A stretch of 64,000 nt of DNA from Gillisia sp. (GTDB lineage Bacteria > Bacteroidota > Bacteroidia > Flavobacteriales > Flavobacteriaceae), in the NCBI GenBank assembly GCA_041743165.1, contig JBGTNH010000020.1, positions 5,157-69,156 on the forward strand. Direction: 5' to 3'. The translations under genes and the position numbers were made by a program. Below are positions 5,072 to 52,051 of this stretch, piece by piece. Below the pieces are notes generated by a model. It ran no database searches. It worked only from the letters and a program-made list of their open reading frames with translations, and was not told where the DNA came from. Numbering within the stretch: the first letter of the stretch is position 1; each line of letters starts with the position of its first letter.

Positions 5072-5689
5072 TTAATTAAAGATCAGGGAATTTGCCTGGT
5101 CAATTTCGTCCCTGGAAACGCTATGAGTTTTATTCTTATAGACTTCGACCCTCACCGCAGCATTGAGACTGTTCATAATTGCAGCAGTTTGGTTCACCCG
5201 TTCTAAAGGTACATGATCATCGGGATCTCCTGTTCCTATAAACACCCGTGTTCCTTCCAAATCCCCCGCATAATCATTTTCATCTATTATTTTCCCCGGT
5301 AAACCTCCCGTAAAAGCTGCTACACCTCCATATCTACGTGGGTTTTTTGTGACATATTCCAGAACCAGGCACGCCCCCTGGGAGAATCCAAGAAAATAAA
5401 TATTTTCATATTCTATTCCCTGTTTTCTTATATCCTGAACAGTTTCTTCTATCAAGGCCAAAGCCGAGGACAGCCAGGGCTCATTTTGTTCTTTGGGAAG
5501 CAGGAAGGAACCCGGATACCACGTGTTATTTGTGGCCTGGGGTGCAAATATTGCATACTCCCCGACATTCAATTGTGATGCCAGCACTAAAATATCATTT
5601 GCACCTGCACCCCGTCCATGAACCATGATAAGTGCCTTTCTTGCCTCGGTTGCAGGTTTTCCTGTGGTGATTATATTTTTTATATGCAT
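5072..5689 (-). CDS. Phospholipase/carboxylesterase (MhqD-like)
   Basis: HGRG, GFSQGA, DDHVP, H near C-terminus; next to ring-cleaving dioxygenase. Confidence 0.85.
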   Translation of the reverse strand: MHIKNIITTGKPATEARKALIMVHGRGAGANDILVLASQLNVGEYAIFAPQATNNTWYPGSFLLPKEQNEPWLSSALALIEETVQDIRKQGIEYENIYFLGFSQGACLVLEYVTKNPRRYGGVAAFTGGLPGKIIDENDYAGDLEGTRVFIGTGDPDDHVPLERVNQTAAIMNSLNAAVRVEVYKNKTHSVSRDEIDQANSLIFN

Positions 5690-5752
5690 ATCCTGATTTT
5701 TAAATTATATTGATTTTTTACAAATTCTTTAAAATAGAGAGGAAGATCATTT

Positions 5753-6691
5753 TTAAATTTTCAACTCCGGCAAAGAATTTTCAATTTGTGCACGTTGTCC
5801 CTTATATCTATCGGGTAACTGCAATCTGCTACCCAGCTCGTCTACACTCTCATCTGTTGCAAAACCCGGATTATCTGTTGCAATTTCAAAAAGGACCCCA
5901 CCCGGTTCCCTAAAATACAGGGAGAAAAAATAGTCCCTGTTGATCTTCTCTGTGATCTGAAGTCCGCTTTTAAGGACTTTCTCTCTAAAAAACATCAGGG
6001 TTTCTTCATCTTTAACCCTGAATGCCACATGGTGGTTTGTTCCTCCTGCATTTACTCCCCGTTCACCGTCAGGTTTTTCCAAAAGATCAACTATTGCTGC
6101 GGTAGAAACTGCATCTGTCTTAAAACGATAGAGATTGCCCTCCTGACCGGTAAATTTGTATCCGAATATATCCGTGAGGATCGCGGCAGTTGGCTGGATA
6201 TTCCAAAGGCTCAGGGTCACATTATGGAATCCTTTTATAGCAGAATTTTGATCTACCTCACTGGTTTCAAATCCCTCCCGGTCATCCTGGGAATCTGAAA
6301 CTATCAATTCCAGGTTAAGGCCGTCGGGATCGCGGAAGGGTATAAAATCTTCACCAAATTTTCTGTTGATATTTCCATAGTCAACACCAAATTTTTCAAA
6401 CCTTTCCCTCCAGAATTCCAAACTCCCGGGCGGAACAGAATAACCTACTTCAGTTGCCATTCCCACCCCGGCCTTACCCTGTTTTACGCGTGGCCAGGGA
6501 AAAAAAGTGAGTATTGTTCCCGGGCTTCCCACCCGGTCTCCAAAATAGAAATGATAAGTATTGGGATCATCAAAATTCACAGTTCTCTTCACCATTCTCA
6601 ATCCCAGGACCGCGGTGTAAAAATCATAATTGCGCTGGGCATCGCCGGCGATTGCCGTTATATGGTGAAGGCCGAGTATCTGGTTATTCAT
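5753..6691 (-). CDS. Ring-cleaving dioxygenase (MhqA/MhqO-like)
   Basis: GLHHITAI, KRTVNFDDPNTYHFYFG, HHVAFR, DRDYFFSLYFREPGGVLFEIATDNPGF. Confidence 0.92.
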   Translation of the reverse strand: MNNQILGLHHITAIAGDAQRNYDFYTAVLGLRMVKRTVNFDDPNTYHFYFGDRVGSPGTILTFFPWPRVKQGKAGVGMATEVGYSVPPGSLEFWRERFEKFGVDYGNINRKFGEDFIPFRDPDGLNLELIVSDSQDDREGFETSEVDQNSAIKGFHNVTLSLWNIQPTAAILTDIFGYKFTGQEGNLYRFKTDAVSTAAIVDLLEKPDGERGVNAGGTNHHVAFRVKDEETLMFFREKVLKSGLQITEKINRDYFFSLYFREPGGVLFEIATDNPGFATDESVDELGSRLQLPDRYKGQRAQIENSLPELKI

Positions 6692-45607: not shown

Positions 45608-46338
45608 TGGAGAATTTTCCGCATATAAAAGTGATGGGGGAGAGGGCAATTCTCGTTGAATTTTCTCCGGAAATAAGTGAAACTCTGCTTAAAAAGCTTC
45701 TTTTTTATAAAAATTTACTGCAAAAAAATTTTTTTAAACAAAAGGTTGAGGTTATTAACGCATATTCCTCGTTATTAATATATTATCATTATGATATAGA
45801 TAATATCTATAGTGAGGTTTCAAAGGTAAATCGACTTTTTTACAGGGCTAATGTAGACAAAAAATTTAACTCTCATTTATTTTATATACCAGTGTGCTAT
45901 GATCGGGAATTTGGTCTTGATCTGGATTATATTTCCAAAGAGAAAAAGCTTACGAATGAGGAAATTATCAGGCTGCATTCCAACCCAATTTACACGGTTT
46001 ATTTTATTGGTTTTTTACCCGGATTTTTATACCTGGGAGGTCTCGATAAAAAGCTTCATATCTCGCGGAAAAATACACCCAGATCGAGGGTTGAAAAAGG
46101 GGCAGTGGGGATAGGTGAAAATCAGACCGGAATTTATCCAAAATCCAGCCCGGGAGGATGGCAGATAATCGGGAATTCTCCGGTGGAAATGTTTGATAAA
46201 AACAGTGATCCTCCCTGCCCCATAAATGCCGGGGATAAAATAAAATTTCAACCGGTTTCCCGGGATGAATATGAGGTCATAAAAACCCGGGTTAGTCAGG
46301 GTACATTTCAATTAAGAAGGGAGGAATATGAGGGCTGA
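45607..46338 (+). CDS. pxpB: 5-oxoprolinase subunit B
   Basis: IPVCYD, GFLPGFLY, GIYP..SPGGWQIIG. Confidence 0.93.
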   Translation: MENFPHIKVMGERAILVEFSPEISETLLKKLLFYKNLLQKNFFKQKVEVINAYSSLLIYYHYDIDNIYSEVSKVNRLFYRANVDKKFNSHLFYIPVCYDREFGLDLDYISKEKKLTNEEIIRLHSNPIYTVYFIGFLPGFLYLGGLDKKLHISRKNTPRSRVEKGAVGIGENQTGIYPKSSPGGWQIIGNSPVEMFDKNSDPPCPINAGDKIKFQPVSRDEYEVIKTRVSQGTFQLRREEYEG

Positions 46339-47212
46339 AATCGAAGTGCTGAAACCGGGATTGTTTTCCACCATTCAGGATAAGGGCAGGTTTGGATTTA
46401 TGGATTCTGGAGTTCCAACCAGTGGACCTATGGATATGTATGCTTCCCGACTTGGAAATTTGCTTCTCAATAATTCACCGGATAGACCTGTATTGGAAAT
46501 TACCCAAACAGGTCCAACATTAAAATTCTGGTCCCCGGCAAATATTGTGATCACCGGCGGTAATTTATCGCCAATGATTAATGATTCCGAAATTAAAAAT
46601 GGCAGGATCTCCATCTTAAAAAAAGGGGATGTTTTAAGTTTTGGTAAAAGGATTCTTGGTAGCCGGGCTTATGTTTGTATTCAGGGTGGATTTACGGGCA
46701 ATAAAGTTTTGGGTAGTTACAGTTGGTATGATGGATTGACCGAGCATTTTCGGTTGGAAAAAGGCATGAATCTTTATTTGGATTCTGAATTACAAGGGGA
46801 AATTAATACCACCTCCCTGGTAAAGTATAGTGAAAATTATCTCTCTGAGTGTATAGTTACAGTTTATCCGGGACCGGAGTTTTATTCTCTTCCTGGTGTT
46901 ATGCAACAGGAAATTTTGAAGAGGAATTTTACCGTTGATTCAAAAAGTAATCGTATGGCAATTCTGTTTAAAGAAATATTTAAGAATTATATGGAACCTA
47001 TAATTTCGGGACCTGTGATCCCCGGGACTGTTCAATTGACCCCTTCCGGAAAGATGATTATTCTTATGAGGGACTGTCAGACAACAGGCGGATATCCCCG
47101 GGTCTTACAGATAAGTACCAAGGGTCTTAATGTGCTCGCTCAAAAAATGACAGGAGATAAAATAAAATTTCAGTTGGTTGATCCTATTAAAAAAGAAGTG
47201 TCGCCGATATAA
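46328..47212 (+). CDS. pxpC: 5-oxoprolinase subunit C
   Basis: TIQDKGRFG, GPMD, PGTVQL, DCQTTGGYP. Confidence 0.93.
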   Translation: MRAEIEVLKPGLFSTIQDKGRFGFMDSGVPTSGPMDMYASRLGNLLLNNSPDRPVLEITQTGPTLKFWSPANIVITGGNLSPMINDSEIKNGRISILKKGDVLSFGKRILGSRAYVCIQGGFTGNKVLGSYSWYDGLTEHFRLEKGMNLYLDSELQGEINTTSLVKYSENYLSECIVTVYPGPEFYSLPGVMQQEILKRNFTVDSKSNRMAILFKEIFKNYMEPIISGPVIPGTVQLTPSGKMIILMRDCQTTGGYPRVLQISTKGLNVLAQKMTGDKIKFQLVDPIKKEVSPI

Positions 47213-47288
47213 ACGATAGCAGCCCTACCTACTATGTCAACATCTTTGCGACACTTTTTTACCCCTGAAAGGAGTTTATCCAACTTTA
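47189..47288 (-). ncRNA. Predicted ~100-nt small RNA, copy 1
   Basis: Minus-strand promoter (TTG 47323-47321, TAAATTTG 47300-47293); long hairpin AAGUGUCGC/GCGACACUU with apex UAGGUAGGGCUG, then UUCUUUUUU; ends approximate. Confidence 0.5.
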
Positions 47289-47292
47289 AAAC

Positions 47293-47340
47293 CAAATTTA
47301 AGTCTAAATTCACCTCCGGGCAAGGGGATTTTTCCCCTTT
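47293..47340. promoter_or_regulatory. Palindromic operator copy 1 plus divergent sigma70 promoter
   Basis: CAAGGGGATTTTTCCCCTTT at 47321-47340, identical to 48862-48881. Confidence 0.8.
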
Positions 47341-47416
47341 TATTCTATAAATGAATATTTCATTCTGAATTTGTTTATTTTTATTTTATTTAACAAAAAT
47401 TTTAAAATCATAAAAT

Positions 47417-47806
47417 ATGGCGAAACCAGAAAAGTGTATAACAGTTGAAGAAGCCAGAGACCTTCAGAATAATTGGAAAAGGACCCGCGGTAAGGAAATA
47501 GAGAGAGGACAGGGTTATGTAGATACACCTGAATTTTGGTACAGCATTGCTGAACTGGAAGAGTATATAGAGTATGTAAAACTTAAGTCTGGGGAACAAG
47601 GGGTGAATAATCCCGGGTTGCGCATTTATCTTGGAGCCTACCCTTCCCTGGGACAGAAGAAAAGCTTCACTACAATTTTCATAACTCCTACCATGCCGAT
47701 GGGTGATGAGAAAAGCCTGAATGAAAATGAAGGGGAACAAGTAAATAATTATGAGATCGATCCTATTAACGAGAGCCAACAGGGATATCCTCCAATCGAT
47801 TATTAA
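47417..47806 (+). CDS. Small soluble hypothetical protein (129 aa), first gene of the signalling cassette
   Basis: No signal peptide; FWYSIAELEEYI, GLRIYLGAY, TIFITPT, C-terminal N..QQGYPPIDY. Confidence 0.8.
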   Translation: MAKPEKCITVEEARDLQNNWKRTRGKEIERGQGYVDTPEFWYSIAELEEYIEYVKLKSGEQGVNNPGLRIYLGAYPSLGQKKSFTTIFITPTMPMGDEKSLNENEGEQVNNYEIDPINESQQGYPPIDY

Positions 47807-47812
47807 GAAGTT

Positions 47813-48559
47813 TTGTTGCTGGAATATTTTATAAAGAACTCGCTCCTGATGTATCTTCTGGAGATTGGGGCAGCTGTGGCAGGGACGATTTATCTCAACC
47901 GCGCAAAATATCCTGTGCCCTACTCAAAACTTTTTGTGGGATATCTGTGGTTAGTAGTACTTGTAGAAATAATAGGGTATTACCCCACATTTAATTTTTT
48001 CACCCATTTTTCCTACATGCCTTTTGTCGAAGGAACTGTATTCGAAAGAAACTTCTGGCTATATAATTCCTACAACATTGTCAAATTCGCTATTTATTTC
48101 ATCTTTTTTATAGCACAATTACGTAGTAAGAGCAGCATACAGGTTTTCAAGTTGGTCCTGGCAGGCTTTGTAATTACGGCTATTTTAAATCTTATATTTA
48201 CCGATGTTTTTTATACCCGGAGCTCTACATATACCTATATAACCGGTTCCCTTACACTTATGATTTTAATCTTTGTTTATTATATGGAGTTGCTTAGGAG
48301 TGACAGGATATTATTCTTTTATAAAAGTCTTCCCTTTTACATTTCGGTAGGCCTGCTGCTATGGAACGTGACTATAACGCCGCTTTTTATATATAATAAA
48401 TATTTTACCAGTGCGAGTCCGGAATTTGTTAGTTTGCATTCTACTATCCTTAGAGTTTCCAATTTCTTCCTTTACGGAATCTATATAACGGCTTTCATTA
48501 TATGTTCATCGAAGAGTAAAAGTAATTTACTCCCTAGTAATCCATCCGTAAAGGTTTGA
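47813..48559 (+). CDS. Seven-transmembrane protein of unknown function
   Basis: Seven hydrophobic segments counted by eye; TTG start 6 nt after the previous stop; no soluble enzymatic domain. Confidence 0.75.
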   Translation: MLLEYFIKNSLLMYLLEIGAAVAGTIYLNRAKYPVPYSKLFVGYLWLVVLVEIIGYYPTFNFFTHFSYMPFVEGTVFERNFWLYNSYNIVKFAIYFIFFIAQLRSKSSIQVFKLVLAGFVITAILNLIFTDVFYTRSSTYTYITGSLTLMILIFVYYMELLRSDRILFFYKSLPFYISVGLLLWNVTITPLFIYNKYFTSASPEFVSLHSTILRVSNFFLYGIYITAFIICSSKSKSNLLPSNPSVKV

Positions 48560-48728
48560 ATCTTCTAGTAACAGGTAATCCACATAACAAGTCTATTTTG
48601 CTTGACTGTCTTTTATAAAATGATAAAGGATATTAGATAAAAAATATTGGAATATAGATGAGCCGTGATGAGGGTAAAAAGTAAGGATCCTGGCTATAAA
48701 ATAGGGAGTTAGTAAAAGAGCCTGAAAT

Positions 48729-48829
48729 AAAAAAAAGTGCCATTCAGATGTATCTTGTTAACAGCCCTACCTATTATCAATTACCTAAAATGACACTTTT
48801 ACTATAATACTTTATAAAGAAAAATTGAC
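48729..48829 (-). ncRNA. Predicted ~100-nt small RNA, copy 2
   Basis: Minus-strand TTG 48864-48862 and TACTTTTA 48841-48834; hairpin AAAAGUGUCAUU/AAUGGCACUUUU (U.G only on this strand), same apex UAGGUAGGGCUG, U8 tail; ends approximate. Confidence 0.5.
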
Positions 48830-48833
48830 CTGG

Positions 48834-48881
48834 TAAAAGTAGGTTTGAGGTTAATACCAAACAAGGGGATTTTTCCCCTTT
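48834..48881. promoter_or_regulatory. Palindromic operator copy 2 plus divergent promoter
   Basis: CAAGGGGATTTTTCCCCTTT at 48862-48881. Confidence 0.8.
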
Positions 48882-48957
48882 ATTTTTGGGAAAATTGTTC
48901 TGTTTAAGCAAATGCCCATAAAATTTTATGTATACTTGTTTAAAGAATTGATTTTCT

Positions 48958-49743
48958 ATGCTTGCCAAAGAGGAAATGCTCTTAATTGTTTATTTTACAG
49001 TTGTCATACTCCTTTTGACCGCCTTCGCCATCGTTTTCTTTATTACTTTCCAAAGAAGAAAGAATAAACTGTTAATGGAAAAATTTGAGACCGAAAAAAG
49101 ATTTGAAGAAGAACTTACCCAATCCCGGCTCGAAATTCAGGAACAAACTTTAAAAAATGTTGCGTGGGAGTTGCATGATAATATTGGACAGTTACTTTCT
49201 GTAGCCAATATGCAGCTTAACATGCTTAGCGGTAAAGTGGAGGAATCATCACAGGGCCCGGTACTGGAGATCAGAAACATTGTAGCCAGTTCCCTTCAGG
49301 AAGTCAGGTCCCTTTCAAAATCTCTAAATAATGAAGTCATCGATTATTCCGGTCTTGAAGCTTCAGTTAAAAATGAACTTGATAGATTTACACGACTTAA
49401 TATCCTTGATGCCAGAATGGAAGTGACAGGCGAAAGTTTTGAGATCCACCAAAAAGATGCCATCATTTTATTCAGGATACTTCAGGAATTTTTCAGCAAT
49501 GTCATCAAACATTCCAGGGCCAGCTTACTTAGCGTGAATTTTAAATTTGAAGCGGAACATTTAATTATTAATGCCAGGGATAATGGGGTGGGTTTTGAGG
49601 TGGAGGATGTTCAGAAGAATTCGGGTTTACTCAATATGAAAAGTAGAGCAGAGGTCATAAATACTCAATTTGATCTAACCTCTTCCAAAGATGTAGGAAC
49701 TTCCTTATCTTTATCCTATCCTTTAACTACATGTAAAGAATGA
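48958..49743 (+). CDS. HisKA_3-type histidine kinase, single TM, no sensor domain
   Basis: N-terminal TM, WELHDNIGQ H-box, RILQEFFSNVIKH, DNGVGF, GLLNM. Confidence 0.92.
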   Translation: MLAKEEMLLIVYFTVVILLLTAFAIVFFITFQRRKNKLLMEKFETEKRFEEELTQSRLEIQEQTLKNVAWELHDNIGQLLSVANMQLNMLSGKVEESSQGPVLEIRNIVASSLQEVRSLSKSLNNEVIDYSGLEASVKNELDRFTRLNILDARMEVTGESFEIHQKDAIILFRILQEFFSNVIKHSRASLLSVNFKFEAEHLIINARDNGVGFEVEDVQKNSGLLNMKSRAEVINTQFDLTSSKDVGTSLSLSYPLTTCKE

Positions 49744-50372
49744 GTAAATCTGTCATAATAGTTGATGATCACAATCTTTTTGGCCAATCCCTTAAGGGCT
49801 TGATTGGATCCTTTCCAAATTTTGAAGTCCTGGAAGTCTTCAAAAATGGCGGGGAATTGGTGGATTACTTATCTGCGAATAAAAAACTACCCGATATCAT
49901 TTTATTGGATGTGAGAATGCCTGTGATGAATGGGTTTGAAACCATGGATTGGGTTAGGAAAAATCTGCCGGATCAAAAGGTTCTGGCATTAACGATGGAA
50001 CATGATGAGGAAACCATTATTAAAATGATCAAGGCGGGTTGCAGGGGATATTTGTTAAAGGATATTGAGCCCAACGAATTTTTACTTGCGCTTAATTGTG
50101 TGACCGAGAGTGGATTTTACCTTAATGAAGAATCTTCCATTGCTTCATGTTCTTCTAATAAAGATAAAGTTGAAGAAAAACTTTCCCAAAGAGAATTAGA
50201 ATTCCTCAATTTGGCTTGTAGTGAACTTACCTATAAGCAGGTGGCAGATGAAATGAACCTTAGCCCGAAAACCATAGATGGATATCGGGAAAGTCTTTTC
50301 AATAAACTCCGGGTTCGTAGCAGGGTGGGCCTGGTATTGTATGCTGTAAAAAACAATATGGTAGAAGTTTAA
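49740..50372 (+). CDS. NarL/LuxR-family response regulator
   Basis: IVDDH, LLDVRMPVMNG, LTM, GYLLK, LSQRELEFL...TIDGYRESLFNKL. Confidence 0.95.
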   Translation: MSKSVIIVDDHNLFGQSLKGLIGSFPNFEVLEVFKNGGELVDYLSANKKLPDIILLDVRMPVMNGFETMDWVRKNLPDQKVLALTMEHDEETIIKMIKAGCRGYLLKDIEPNEFLLALNCVTESGFYLNEESSIASCSSNKDKVEEKLSQRELEFLNLACSELTYKQVADEMNLSPKTIDGYRESLFNKLRVRSRVGLVLYAVKNNMVEV

Positions 50373-50527: not shown

Positions 50528-52051
50528 GTGATCGATTCGGCCAAAATAGAATTAAGGAATTTAAGATTAAAAGATTACCAGGAGTTAAAAATTTCCATGA
50601 TCAAGAGTTATGGAACAATGGGCGATGAGTACTGGAGTAAGGCTGAAATCAAAACCCTCATCAACAAATTCCCTGACGGGCAGTTCTGTATTGAAATAGA
50701 TGGAAAGATTGCTGGCTGCGCCCTTTCTATTATTGTAGACTACGATAAGTTTGATGCTAACCACAAGTACGAAGATATCATTGGAGGAGAGAATTTCTCT
50801 ACCCACACCAATAATGGAGATGTGCTTTATGGAATTGATGTTTTTATTCACCCCGATTATCGCGGGATGCGCCTGGGAAGAAGATTATATGAAGCCAGAA
50901 AGGAACTTTGCGAGCAGCTCAATTTAAAATCCATAATATTTGGAGGCCGAATTCCAAACTTTGCCGCTTATGCAGATGAATTAACTCCCAAAAAATATAT
51001 TGATAAGGTAAAACTCAAAGAGATCCACGATCCTGTGCTTTCCTTCCAGCTTTCCAATGATTTCCACGTAAAAAAGGTGATCAAAGGTTATTTGCCGGGA
51101 GATGAGGACAGTATGGAATTTGCCACCCTAATGGAGTGGAACAATATTTACTACACCAAGGAGAAGAAGCTTATTGACACCAAAAAAACGGTTGTGCGGC
51201 TGGGATTGGTGCAATGGCAAATGAGGTTGTTTAAGGACTATGACGCCCTGGTGGCCCAGATAGAATTTTTTGTGGATGCGGTGAGCGATTATCAAAGCGA
51301 TTTTATTCTTTTTCCTGAATTGTTCAACGCCCCGTTAATGGCGCAATTTAACCATTTGAATGAAGCTGAAGCCATTCGTGGCCTGTCATCATATACTGAA
51401 AGATTGCTGGAAACATTCAGGGAATTTGCGATAAATTATAATATCAATATCATCACCGGAAGTATGCCCCAGGTTCAGGGAGAGCATATGCATAACGTAG
51501 GATTTTTATGCCGAAGGGATGGTAGCTATGAAAAATATGAGAAACTGCATATCACCCCGGCTGAAGAATCGGCCTGGGGGATGAAAGGCGGATCAATTCT
51601 TCAAACTTATGATACAGATTGCGGTAAGGTAGGTGTCCTGATATGTTATGACGTTGAATTCCCCGAATTACCAAGGCTTCTAGCTGAAGAGGGTATGAAC
51701 ATACTTTTTGTGCCATTTATGACAGATACTCAGAACGGTTATTCCAGGGTGAAGATCTGTGCTCAATCCCGTGCAGTAGAAAATGAATGTTACGTTGCTA
51801 TCGCCGGATCTGTGGGGAATCTTCCAAAGGTGAATAATATGGATATACAATATGCTCAAAGCGCTGTATTCACCCCATCAGATTTTGCTTTTCCTGTAAA
51901 TGGCATCAAGGCCGAAGCTACCCCAAACACAGAAAGTACCCTGCTGGTAGATGTGGATCTTGATTTGTTGAAAGAATTACACGCTTTTGGAAGTGTGAGG
52001 AATATGAAGGACAGGAGAAAAGATCTGTATTCCCTGAAACGGAAAAAATAA
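50528..52051 (+). CDS. Bifunctional GNAT acetyltransferase / carbon-nitrogen hydrolase
   Basis: GNAT: VFIHPDYRGMRLGRRL; nitrilase triad FPE, YEKLH, ICYDVEF; GTG start. Confidence 0.9.
   Translation: MIDSAKIELRNLRLKDYQELKISMIKSYGTMGDEYWSKAEIKTLINKFPDGQFCIEIDGKIAGCALSIIVDYDKFDANHKYEDIIGGENFSTHTNNGDVLYGIDVFIHPDYRGMRLGRRLYEARKELCEQLNLKSIIFGGRIPNFAAYADELTPKKYIDKVKLKEIHDPVLSFQLSNDFHVKKVIKGYLPGDEDSMEFATLMEWNNIYYTKEKKLIDTKKTVVRLGLVQWQMRLFKDYDALVAQIEFFVDAVSDYQSDFILFPELFNAPLMAQFNHLNEAEAIRGLSSYTERLLETFREFAINYNINIITGSMPQVQGEHMHNVGFLCRRDGSYEKYEKLHITPAEESAWGMKGGSILQTYDTDCGKVGVLICYDVEFPELPRLLAEEGMNILFVPFMTDTQNGYSRVKICAQSRAVENECYVAIAGSVGNLPKVNNMDIQYAQSAVFTPSDFAFPVNGIKAEATPNTESTLLVDVDLDLLKELHAFGSVRNMKDRRKDLYSLKRKK

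Follow-up and report, generated by a model that had tools for sequence, protein, structure and literature searches.

A conserved palindrome at predicted small RNA promoters beside a two-component cassette of Gillisia and related Flavobacteriaceae

Results

A 64,000-nucleotide stretch of the genome of a Gillisia species (Flavobacteriaceae; assembly GCA_041743165.1, contig JBGTNH010000020.1, positions 5,157 to 69,156; hereafter the window) carries a cassette of four plus-strand genes coding for a small protein, a membrane protein, a histidine kinase (HK) and a response regulator (RR), and two identical copies of a palindrome, each of which touches the predicted promoter of a small RNA (sRNA) gene on the opposite strand. 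The first gene of the cassette (47417-47806) encodes a cytoplasmic protein of 129 amino acids (aa) that belongs to no Pfam or NCBIfam family and is specific to the cassette, and the second (47813-48559) a 248-aa membrane protein, polytopic as read from its hydrophobic sequence and likewise without a Pfam or NCBIfam family. The HK (48958-49743; 261 aa) consists of HisKA_3 and HATPase_c domains behind what reads as a single N-terminal transmembrane helix, with no sensor domain apparent in its sequence, and its stop codon overlaps the start codon of the RR gene (49740-50372) at 49740-49743. The RR joins a receiver domain, REC (Response_reg), to a helix-turn-helix (HTH) domain of the GerE/LuxR-C type, as in the NarL/FixJ family, and is the candidate binder of the palindrome. 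Immediately upstream of the cassette, also on the plus strand, lies pxpC (CT_A_B; 46328-47212), the last gene of an Nramp-pxpABC operon.

The palindrome, CAAGGGGATTTTTCCCCTTT, lies at 47321-47340 (copy 1) and at 48862-48881 (copy 2) and is assigned to neither strand. The original prediction, made from the letters of the window, had described it as inverted heptamers, AAGGGGA-N4-TCCCCTT, repeated exactly in DNA that has otherwise diverged, each copy ending 76 nt before a start codon. The reading of the heptamers is correct, the dyad AAGGGGA-TTTT-TCCCCTT extending over 47322-47339 with its G4/C4 core at 47324-47337 in copy 1, and over 48863-48880 with its core at 48865-48878 in copy 2. The exact 20-mer does occur twice in the window, where no third match is found at up to 3 mismatches and shuffled sequences are expected to give 0, and it is intact between flanks that align at 74% identity with gaps. 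The spacing of 76 nt was confirmed for the ATG of the 129-aa protein (47417) and for that of the HisKA_3 kinase (48958), and both start codons match the N-termini of homologs. This exact spacing, although true in the window, is no conserved rule, since relatives have anywhere from 72 to 130 nt between CCCC and ATG; it follows from promoter geometry and a short leader, passed on by duplication. Conserved instead are a distance of 0 nt to a TTG and of 20 nt to a minus-strand -7 box and, on the plus strand, a distance of 41±1 nt to a -7-like box. Judged by these distances, the closest partner of the palindrome looks like the promoter of the opposite-strand sRNA gene that it touches, and not the start codons 76 nt away.

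Read on the minus strand, the palindrome is abutted by TTG, followed by an ungapped 20-nt spacer of variable sequence and then by TAnnTTT(G/A), an arrangement present in 55 of 55 aligned copies. The string TTG-20 nt-TAnnTTT(G/A) is the predicted Bacteroidetes sigma-A promoter, and a scan with the sigma-70 consensus is uninformative for the phylum Bacteroidota. In copy 1, the complement of the -33 TTG occupies 47321-47323 (C47321-A47323), the spacer 47301-47320 and the -7 box, TAAATTTG, 47293-47300 on the minus strand; in copy 2, the corresponding positions are 48862-48864, 48842-48861 and, for the minus-strand -7 box TACTTTTA, 48834-48841. The -7 box of sigma-A promoters occupies positions -12 to -5 in Flavobacterium psychrophilum (PMC9723704), and TTG would therefore lie at -35 to -33 and the centre of the dyad at -42.5 from the predicted transcription start site.

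Downstream of this promoter, members of the family continue for about 100-115 nt and close with a long stem and a U-run. Predicted sRNA-1, of about 100 nt, would extend on the minus strand over 47189-47288 from a start placed at 47288, and comprises a long stem with an inner hairpin (loop GUAGGG) followed by the U-run; predicted sRNA-2, of about 101 nt, would extend over 48729-48829 on the same strand, its 5' part having diverged from the family consensus. A covariance model of the family matches 47189-47299 with 64.2 bits and 48728-48833 with 68.9 bits, and sRNA-1 folds with a computed energy of -34.1 kcal/mol. The consensus structure given by RNAalifold comprises the outer stem and the inner hairpin, the loop of which contains the invariant GUAGGG, and compensatory changes are seen in 12 of its 18 pairs. 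Alignment cells are paired on this structure at 94.7%, as against 75.5% in shuffled alignments and 34-58% when the partners are slid, and double-change cells number 104, compared with 32.8 in the shuffles. The signal is also asymmetric between the strands: G·U cells outnumber A·C cells by 67 to 5, pairing is 94.7% when the minus strand is read and 82.9% for the plus strand, and the energies computed for the stems are lower for the minus strand (-28.3 and -22.7 kcal/mol) than for the plus strand (-20.6 and -9.9 kcal/mol). Several features of a trans-acting sRNA gene are found together, namely a predicted promoter of its own, a terminator made of stem and U-run, and a structure backed by covariation on one strand. 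Searches of Rfam at the gathering score returned 0 matches in the window and in five loci with canonical copies, and in one locus searched at E values up to 10 the sole match, to fstAT, reached 14.5 bits where the gathering score is 72. With its 3' end and terminator stem (47189-47212), sRNA-1 overlaps the last codons and the stop of pxpC; the long stem lies between an A-run and a T-run and is therefore able to act as a bidirectional terminator, so that the predicted stem can serve pxpC as well as sRNA-1. A search of the window for complements of the sRNA loop (CCCTACC, GCCCCAA) gave no convincing target site near any start codon.

On the plus strand, a -7-like box, TATTTTTA, at 47376-47383 is the presumed promoter element of the small-protein gene; it begins at 40 nt from the dyad core, and the dyad centre thus falls at about -57.5. 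The presumed HK-RR promoter has the -7-like box TATACTTG at 48931-48938 (plus strand), 53 nt after CCCC, with the dyad centre at about -71.5. Between the 10-bp core GGnWWWWnCC and octamers of this kind before the small gene (TATTTTTA, TACATTTA, TAAATTTA and others), the distance is 41±1 nt both in the sRNA-bearing clade and in the sister clade described below, and HK-proximal copies of relatives keep TATACTTG at 51-53 nt after CCCC.

All of these elements belong to a duplicated unit of about 230 bp (approximately 47180-47417 and 48722-48958; 74% identity with gaps), of which the palindrome is the best-kept part. A second box, TA(G/A)CAGCCCTACCTA(C/T)TAT, is found about 100 nt upstream of the palindrome in both copies; it sits within the long stem, where the copies differ by compensatory changes (AAGTGTCGC/GCGACACTT versus AAGTGCCAT/ATGACACTT), and the invariant GUAGGG loop of the minus-strand RNA is the complement of its CCCTAC. 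It is the unit of sRNA, box and plus-strand promoter that is duplicated in the lineage of the window, and therefore the effector genes and the kinase and regulator genes each carry one.

The 129-aa protein has a small family of homologs, and the palindrome was present in all six of the loci that were retrieved solely on protein identity. When 185,579 species genomes were scanned for the pattern, 46 loci were obtained, all of them from Flavobacteriaceae and all of them this one locus except for 4 chance matches, the genera being Christiangramia/Gramella, Salegentibacter, Gillisia, Salinimicrobium, Autumnicola and Antarcticibacterium. The pattern required the palindrome, and the unbiased evidence is therefore that of loci selected by protein and of matches to the covariance model alone. 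Eighty metagenome loci picked solely by homology to the small protein gave 43 non-redundant sRNA matches, and the G4/C4 arms are perfect in 39 of these 43 copies and have one arm mismatch in the other 4, the six central bases of the dyad varying freely among A and T; in nearly all 43, too, the 20-nt spacer is ungapped. Every match to the covariance model has GGGG-W(5-7)-CCCC with TTG ending 32-33 nt upstream, including copies that were not selected by the palindrome pattern. In Christiangramia, Salegentibacter, Gillisia and Salinimicrobium, the box and sRNA unit occurs solely at this locus, the order of which is pxpB-pxpC, the element, at least one module of small protein plus membrane protein, HK-RR and GNAT-nitrilase. 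The four cassette genes are contiguous behind a single element in Salinimicrobium and in one metagenome-assembled genome (MAG), the lineage of the window has a second element in front of the HK, and two paralogous units are kept in several species (loci L004, L006, L016, L056, L060 and L081).

Rearranged loci separate the box from the protein genes and leave it with the sRNA promoter, as is the case in inverted units (L008, L021, L033, L046) and in tandem arrays (L015, L044, L045, L019). The inverted order, pxpC, box, sRNA and small gene, is found in Salegentibacter sediminis, S. flavus and related MAGs, and there the box is about 250 nt from the ATG of the small gene, the sRNA lying between them. 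Gillisia and Salegentibacter also have two to four box and sRNA units in tandem with no protein gene between them (L015 1536-2137; L044 266-1096; L045 524-1171; L019 198-991; L020 6029-6496), some members of which have diverged to a loop with GAGUAGAG or GGUGGGG in place of GGUAGGG. Three pxpC-linked loci (L055 5811-5824, L092 3384-3396 and L114 3416-3429) have a G-rich dyad and are not matched by the sRNA model; the dyads of L092 and L114 follow the pxpC stop at 27-40 nt, which leaves no room for an sRNA, and these three loci may represent a state before the sRNA was acquired or after its loss. Locus L010 has a membrane-protein gene in three frame-shifted pieces (5212-5901), followed by a GGGGATTTTTCCCCC palindrome (5955-5969) with no sRNA detectable alongside. 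At L017 (4641-4688), a segment of about 40 nt between pxpC and the sRNA has a word depth of about 3,900 compared with about 150 in its flanks, in two Salegentibacter-like assemblies, and matches many contigs, as a high-copy short repeat does.

A sister clade of cassettes (clade B), mostly from marine metagenomes, has a 118-aa small protein and HK and RR proteins that are about 50% identical; it has no sRNA and is not adjacent to pxpC. At least 24 of these cassettes are divergent from the operon of a contractile injection system (Pvc16_N, sheath, tube and gp19-like proteins), among them L053 (1-5745), L097, L103, L108, L110, L113, L118, L123, L126, L129 and L130. The promoter of the injection-system operon consists of CAGGTAAAATCCTG ([C/A]AGGTAAAAT[A/C]CT[G/C]), TTG, exactly 20 nt and TAnnTTTG, which puts a 4-6-4 dyad in the same place as at the sRNA promoter. 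The GGnWWWWnCC motif recurs in two to three additional boxes, at about -85, -110 and -132 nt relative to the ATG of the small gene and phased at 22-24 bp, and the density of this motif is 12.25 per kb in the intergenic regions as against 0.32 per kb elsewhere (38-fold). The proximal box keeps the 41-nt distance to the -7-like box that is seen in the sRNA-bearing clade. The dyad of this promoter makes a weak 4-bp hairpin without a T-run, and the further boxes stand in phased arrays beside a divergent gene, so that neither is a terminator; they look like arrays of regulator sites, and the arrangement suggests that the cassette may be the switch of the injection system in this clade.

Other features of the region concern the cassette proteins and their neighbors. 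The best NCBIfam matches of the RR are of the MctR, NarL and UvrY types, all of them under the equivalog cut-offs (106 bits for the UvrY/SirA/GacA model, with a cut-off of 280). An AlphaFold2 model of the 129-aa protein built from a 17-sequence alignment reached a pLDDT of 58, too poor for a fold search. The module of small protein and membrane protein (47417-48559 in the window; paralogs in L007, L020, L030 and L048) is amplified one to three times in Christiangramia and Salegentibacter, and extra membrane-protein paralogs are also present, many of which share only 30-40% identity. Conservation changes abruptly along the locus: the fusion protein of GNAT and carbon-nitrogen hydrolase encoded downstream of the RR (50528-52051) is about 99% identical to its counterparts in L004-L006, while identity falls to 76-82% for the adjoining HK and RR and to 67-72% for the small protein. 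No tRNA or tmRNA was found as an integration site.

Discussion

The arrangement described above allows a model to be proposed for the regulation of the cassette. We consider it probable, though well short of assured, that the palindromes are 4-6-4 sites (GGGG-W6-CCCC) for a dimeric factor in a divergent promoter region, the likeliest factor being the phosphorylated NarL/GerE-type RR (49740-50372). The HK and the GerE-type RR are encoded together, and the dyad is conserved in sequence, held at fixed distances from promoter elements and found together with the cassette. This model proposes that, on the minus strand, the dyad abutting the -33 TTG with its centre at -42.5 would occupy the position of a class-II activator for the structured sRNA of about 100 nt, and that, on the plus strand, the same site would act from class-I-like positions, at about -57.5 before the small-protein and membrane-protein genes in copy 1 and at about -71.5 before HK-RR in copy 2. 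From one site, the RR could contact RNA polymerase both at the sRNA promoter and at the promoter of the small gene or of the HK. As HK-RR lies downstream of a box, control by the RR would close an autoregulatory loop, and where the small-protein, membrane-protein, HK and RR genes form a single operon, as in relatives, such control would be autoregulation. Activation is favored because the zero-gap juxtaposition of dyad and TTG is invariant, which suggests a stereospecific contact. We infer the RR as the binder, the transcription of the sRNA, the sign of the regulation and the sRNA targets from sequence.

The proposal that the palindrome is a dimer site of the NarL/LuxR type, which formed part of the original prediction, is in keeping with the invariant arms, the fixed promoter geometry and the presence of a NarL/GerE-type RR in the cassette, although it had overlooked the overlap with the minus-strand sRNA promoter. 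The link that it drew from a feedback loop to quorum sensing found no support, as the RR has a phospho-receiver domain and no autoinducer-binding domain, and no autoinducer synthase domain is found among the neighboring genes (pxpABC, Nramp, those of the small protein, the membrane protein and the HK, and GNAT-nitrilase).

Several observations weigh against the model. Both divergent promoters are near-consensus at -33 and -7, which is atypical of class-II activated promoters, so that repression from this site is also conceivable. In a few copies the arms of the dyad are 5 or 7 bp apart instead of 6, or the base of the stem shows a compensatory change from A/T to G/C, a tolerance that is more like that of a hairpin than of a dimer site, and the plus-strand dyad with its T-run scores as an intrinsic terminator at -11 kcal/mol. 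The recognition helix of the RR differs between the clades (YRE..KSR vs. YRQ..KNR) in a manner that is suggestive and not clean with respect to the box; covariation between helix and box is weak, and L092 and L114 pair a clade-B RR with G-rich boxes. Another protein, for example the 129-aa protein, could be the binder. Transcript data for the sRNA are ambiguous: in unstranded metatranscriptome contigs the depth over the sRNA body is 174-319 compared with 14-49, a difference confounded by k-mers shared among multiple copies and multiple species, whereas contigs specific to one copy show only about 1.5-2 times the depth of their flanks, and three runs of raw RNA reads that carry the same species label gave 0 reads. 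The runs X9 and X10, labelled RNA, are in fact genome assemblies, and the runs of the window's own organism are all of hot-spring metagenome DNA.

Among the alternatives, the one that survives best, though we regard it as unlikely, is that the dyad is bound by another factor, such as the 129-aa protein or a global regulator, or is an extended promoter or UP-type element read by RNA polymerase itself. Helix differences that do not cleanly track box differences leave room for such a factor, as do the near-consensus promoters, the A-tract that flanks the box on its upstream side and a small protein with no known fold. However, the box family is found solely beside this cassette, in two clades and in differing contexts (the pxp operon or the injection-system operon), the 64-kb window has just two sites, and the GerE HTH of the RR is the only recognizable DNA-binding domain that the cassette encodes.

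It is rather improbable that the palindrome is mainly a Rho-independent terminator or insulator of the plus strand, serving, behind the large stem, as a second stop for transcripts that read through from pxpC or from the small-protein and membrane-protein genes, in which case its sequence conservation would come solely from the overlap with the -33 element of the sRNA promoter. The 7-bp stem with its G/C pairs and T-run is called terminator-like at both sites, the plus-strand T-run is about 90% conserved, and the rare copies with a changed loop length and a compensatory stem extension, as well as the hairpin (GGGG-W-CCCC) and T-run that follow the pxpC stop in L092 and L114, where no sRNA was detected, are what a terminator would show. 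However, the arms are invariant in sequence across genera and do not covary, and in the inverted units the hairpin and T-run point away from pxpC and so cannot terminate it. In addition, copy 1 of L004 has no T-run, the dyad of the clade-B injection-system promoter has mere 4-bp arms and no T-run, and phased arrays of three to five boxes would be senseless as terminators because the upstream gene is divergent. Further, the zero gap to TTG and the fixed 41 nt to the plus-strand box are features of promoters.

Far less probable is a plus-strand leader, in which the unit of about 165 nt would control the downstream genes as a riboswitch or attenuator, the palindrome serving as the terminator of its expression platform. 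A conserved structured region is indeed followed by a terminator-like hairpin and then by a gene start, and in canonical copies base pairing between the upstream GCCCC and the hairpin's GGGG is possible in principle. However, the excess of G·U over A·C cells favors the minus strand and the plus-strand folds are 8-13 kcal/mol weaker; a canonical minus-strand promoter stands at fixed spacing, the units may be inverted relative to the genes or arrayed in tandem with no gene behind them, the putative aptamer would in the window start inside the coding sequence of pxpC, and no Rfam family matches. The leader was rejected on strand asymmetry and orientation. Least credible of all is that the two copies are remnants of a segmental duplication or mobile repeat and that the 20-mer is in itself functionless, for although gapped flanks at 74% identity and tandem amplification in some genomes would agree with this, the 20-mer is intact amid diverging surroundings, its core is kept across at least four genera whose cassette proteins are 35-70% identical, it is never dispersed elsewhere in the genomes and both paralogous units are retained in several species. 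Direct repeats of the att type bordering an inserted two-gene island were likewise rejected, as the unit varies in copy number and orientation solely at this locus and each copy has a full promoter, RNA and terminator.

The model of RR binding has partial likenesses among known systems. In Vibrio fischeri, the lux box is centred near -42.5 at the divergent luxR-luxICDABE promoter. The lux box with LuxR, and the tra boxes with TraR, resemble the present arrangement in having a palindrome of about 18-20 bp near -42.5 at a sigma-70-type promoter, in a divergent region, bound by a dimer through a LuxR-C/GerE HTH, binding being predicted here. Unlike LuxR, the present regulator carries a REC domain, is partnered by a kinase and lacks a domain for acyl-homoserine lactones, and there is no autoinducer synthase; the target would be an sRNA, and the promoter keeps a good -33 element and is of the Bacteroidota type TTG/TAnnTTTG. 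The GacS/GacA (BarA/UvrY) system with rsmX/Y/Z and csrB/C offers a NarL/FixJ RR and a palindrome upstream of multi-copy, sometimes tandem, sRNA genes, much as would be the case here if the RR has the proposed role. However, the upstream activating sequence of the Gac system differs in sequence and lies further upstream, whereas the present box abuts -33, and the predicted sRNAs lack repeated GGA motifs and are encoded inside the two-component locus. We know of no link to CsrA/RsmA in this group.

The kinase of the LiaFSR system of Bacillus (liaIH-liaGFSR) is likewise of the HisKA_3 type and lacks an extracytoplasmic sensor domain, LiaS being among the matches below cut-off; the two systems further share a membrane-protein partner gene, a NarL-type RR, a palindromic RR site before small effector genes and autoregulation of the locus, the last two being predicted in the present case. 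No homology of the 129-aa and 248-aa proteins to LiaI, LiaH or LiaF was found, however, and the cassette differs from LiaFSR in its divergent predicted sRNA, its phylum and its promoter type. Duplicated sRNA genes that each stand behind the same regulator site, with a copy number that varies by species, are familiar from OmrA/OmrB and OmpR, Qrr1-5 and LuxO, and PrrF1/2 and Fur, although the fold and sequence of the present sRNA are unrelated to these and without an Rfam match, and the class of regulator and type of promoter differ.

A wider proposal, which we put forward tentatively, is that this four-gene cassette is widespread in Flavobacteriaceae and uses the GGnW4nCC dyad family for divergent outputs, namely the operon of an extracellular contractile injection system in marine relatives and, in Christiangramia, Salegentibacter, Gillisia and Salinimicrobium, a locus-specific sRNA family of one to four copies that possibly replaces that switch output. 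No description of the element or of the cassette was found in the literature, and to our knowledge there is no case in Bacteroidota of an RR tied to a defined operator, nor of an sRNA under two-component control. Gene regulation in Flavobacteriaceae is poorly mapped, and, if the model is true, this would be the first RR-dependent sRNA family described in Bacteroidota. The locus is a compact and testable circuit, in which one dyad lies between two divergent promoters of fixed geometry and a covarying predicted sRNA absent from Rfam. For the annotation of genomes, the present case implies that minus-strand sRNA genes of Bacteroidota may go unrecognized behind intergenic "operators" close to terminator-like stems. 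The same box architecture before the injection-system operons of marine relatives would further provide a handle on how these systems, the switching-on of which is largely unknown, come to be expressed.

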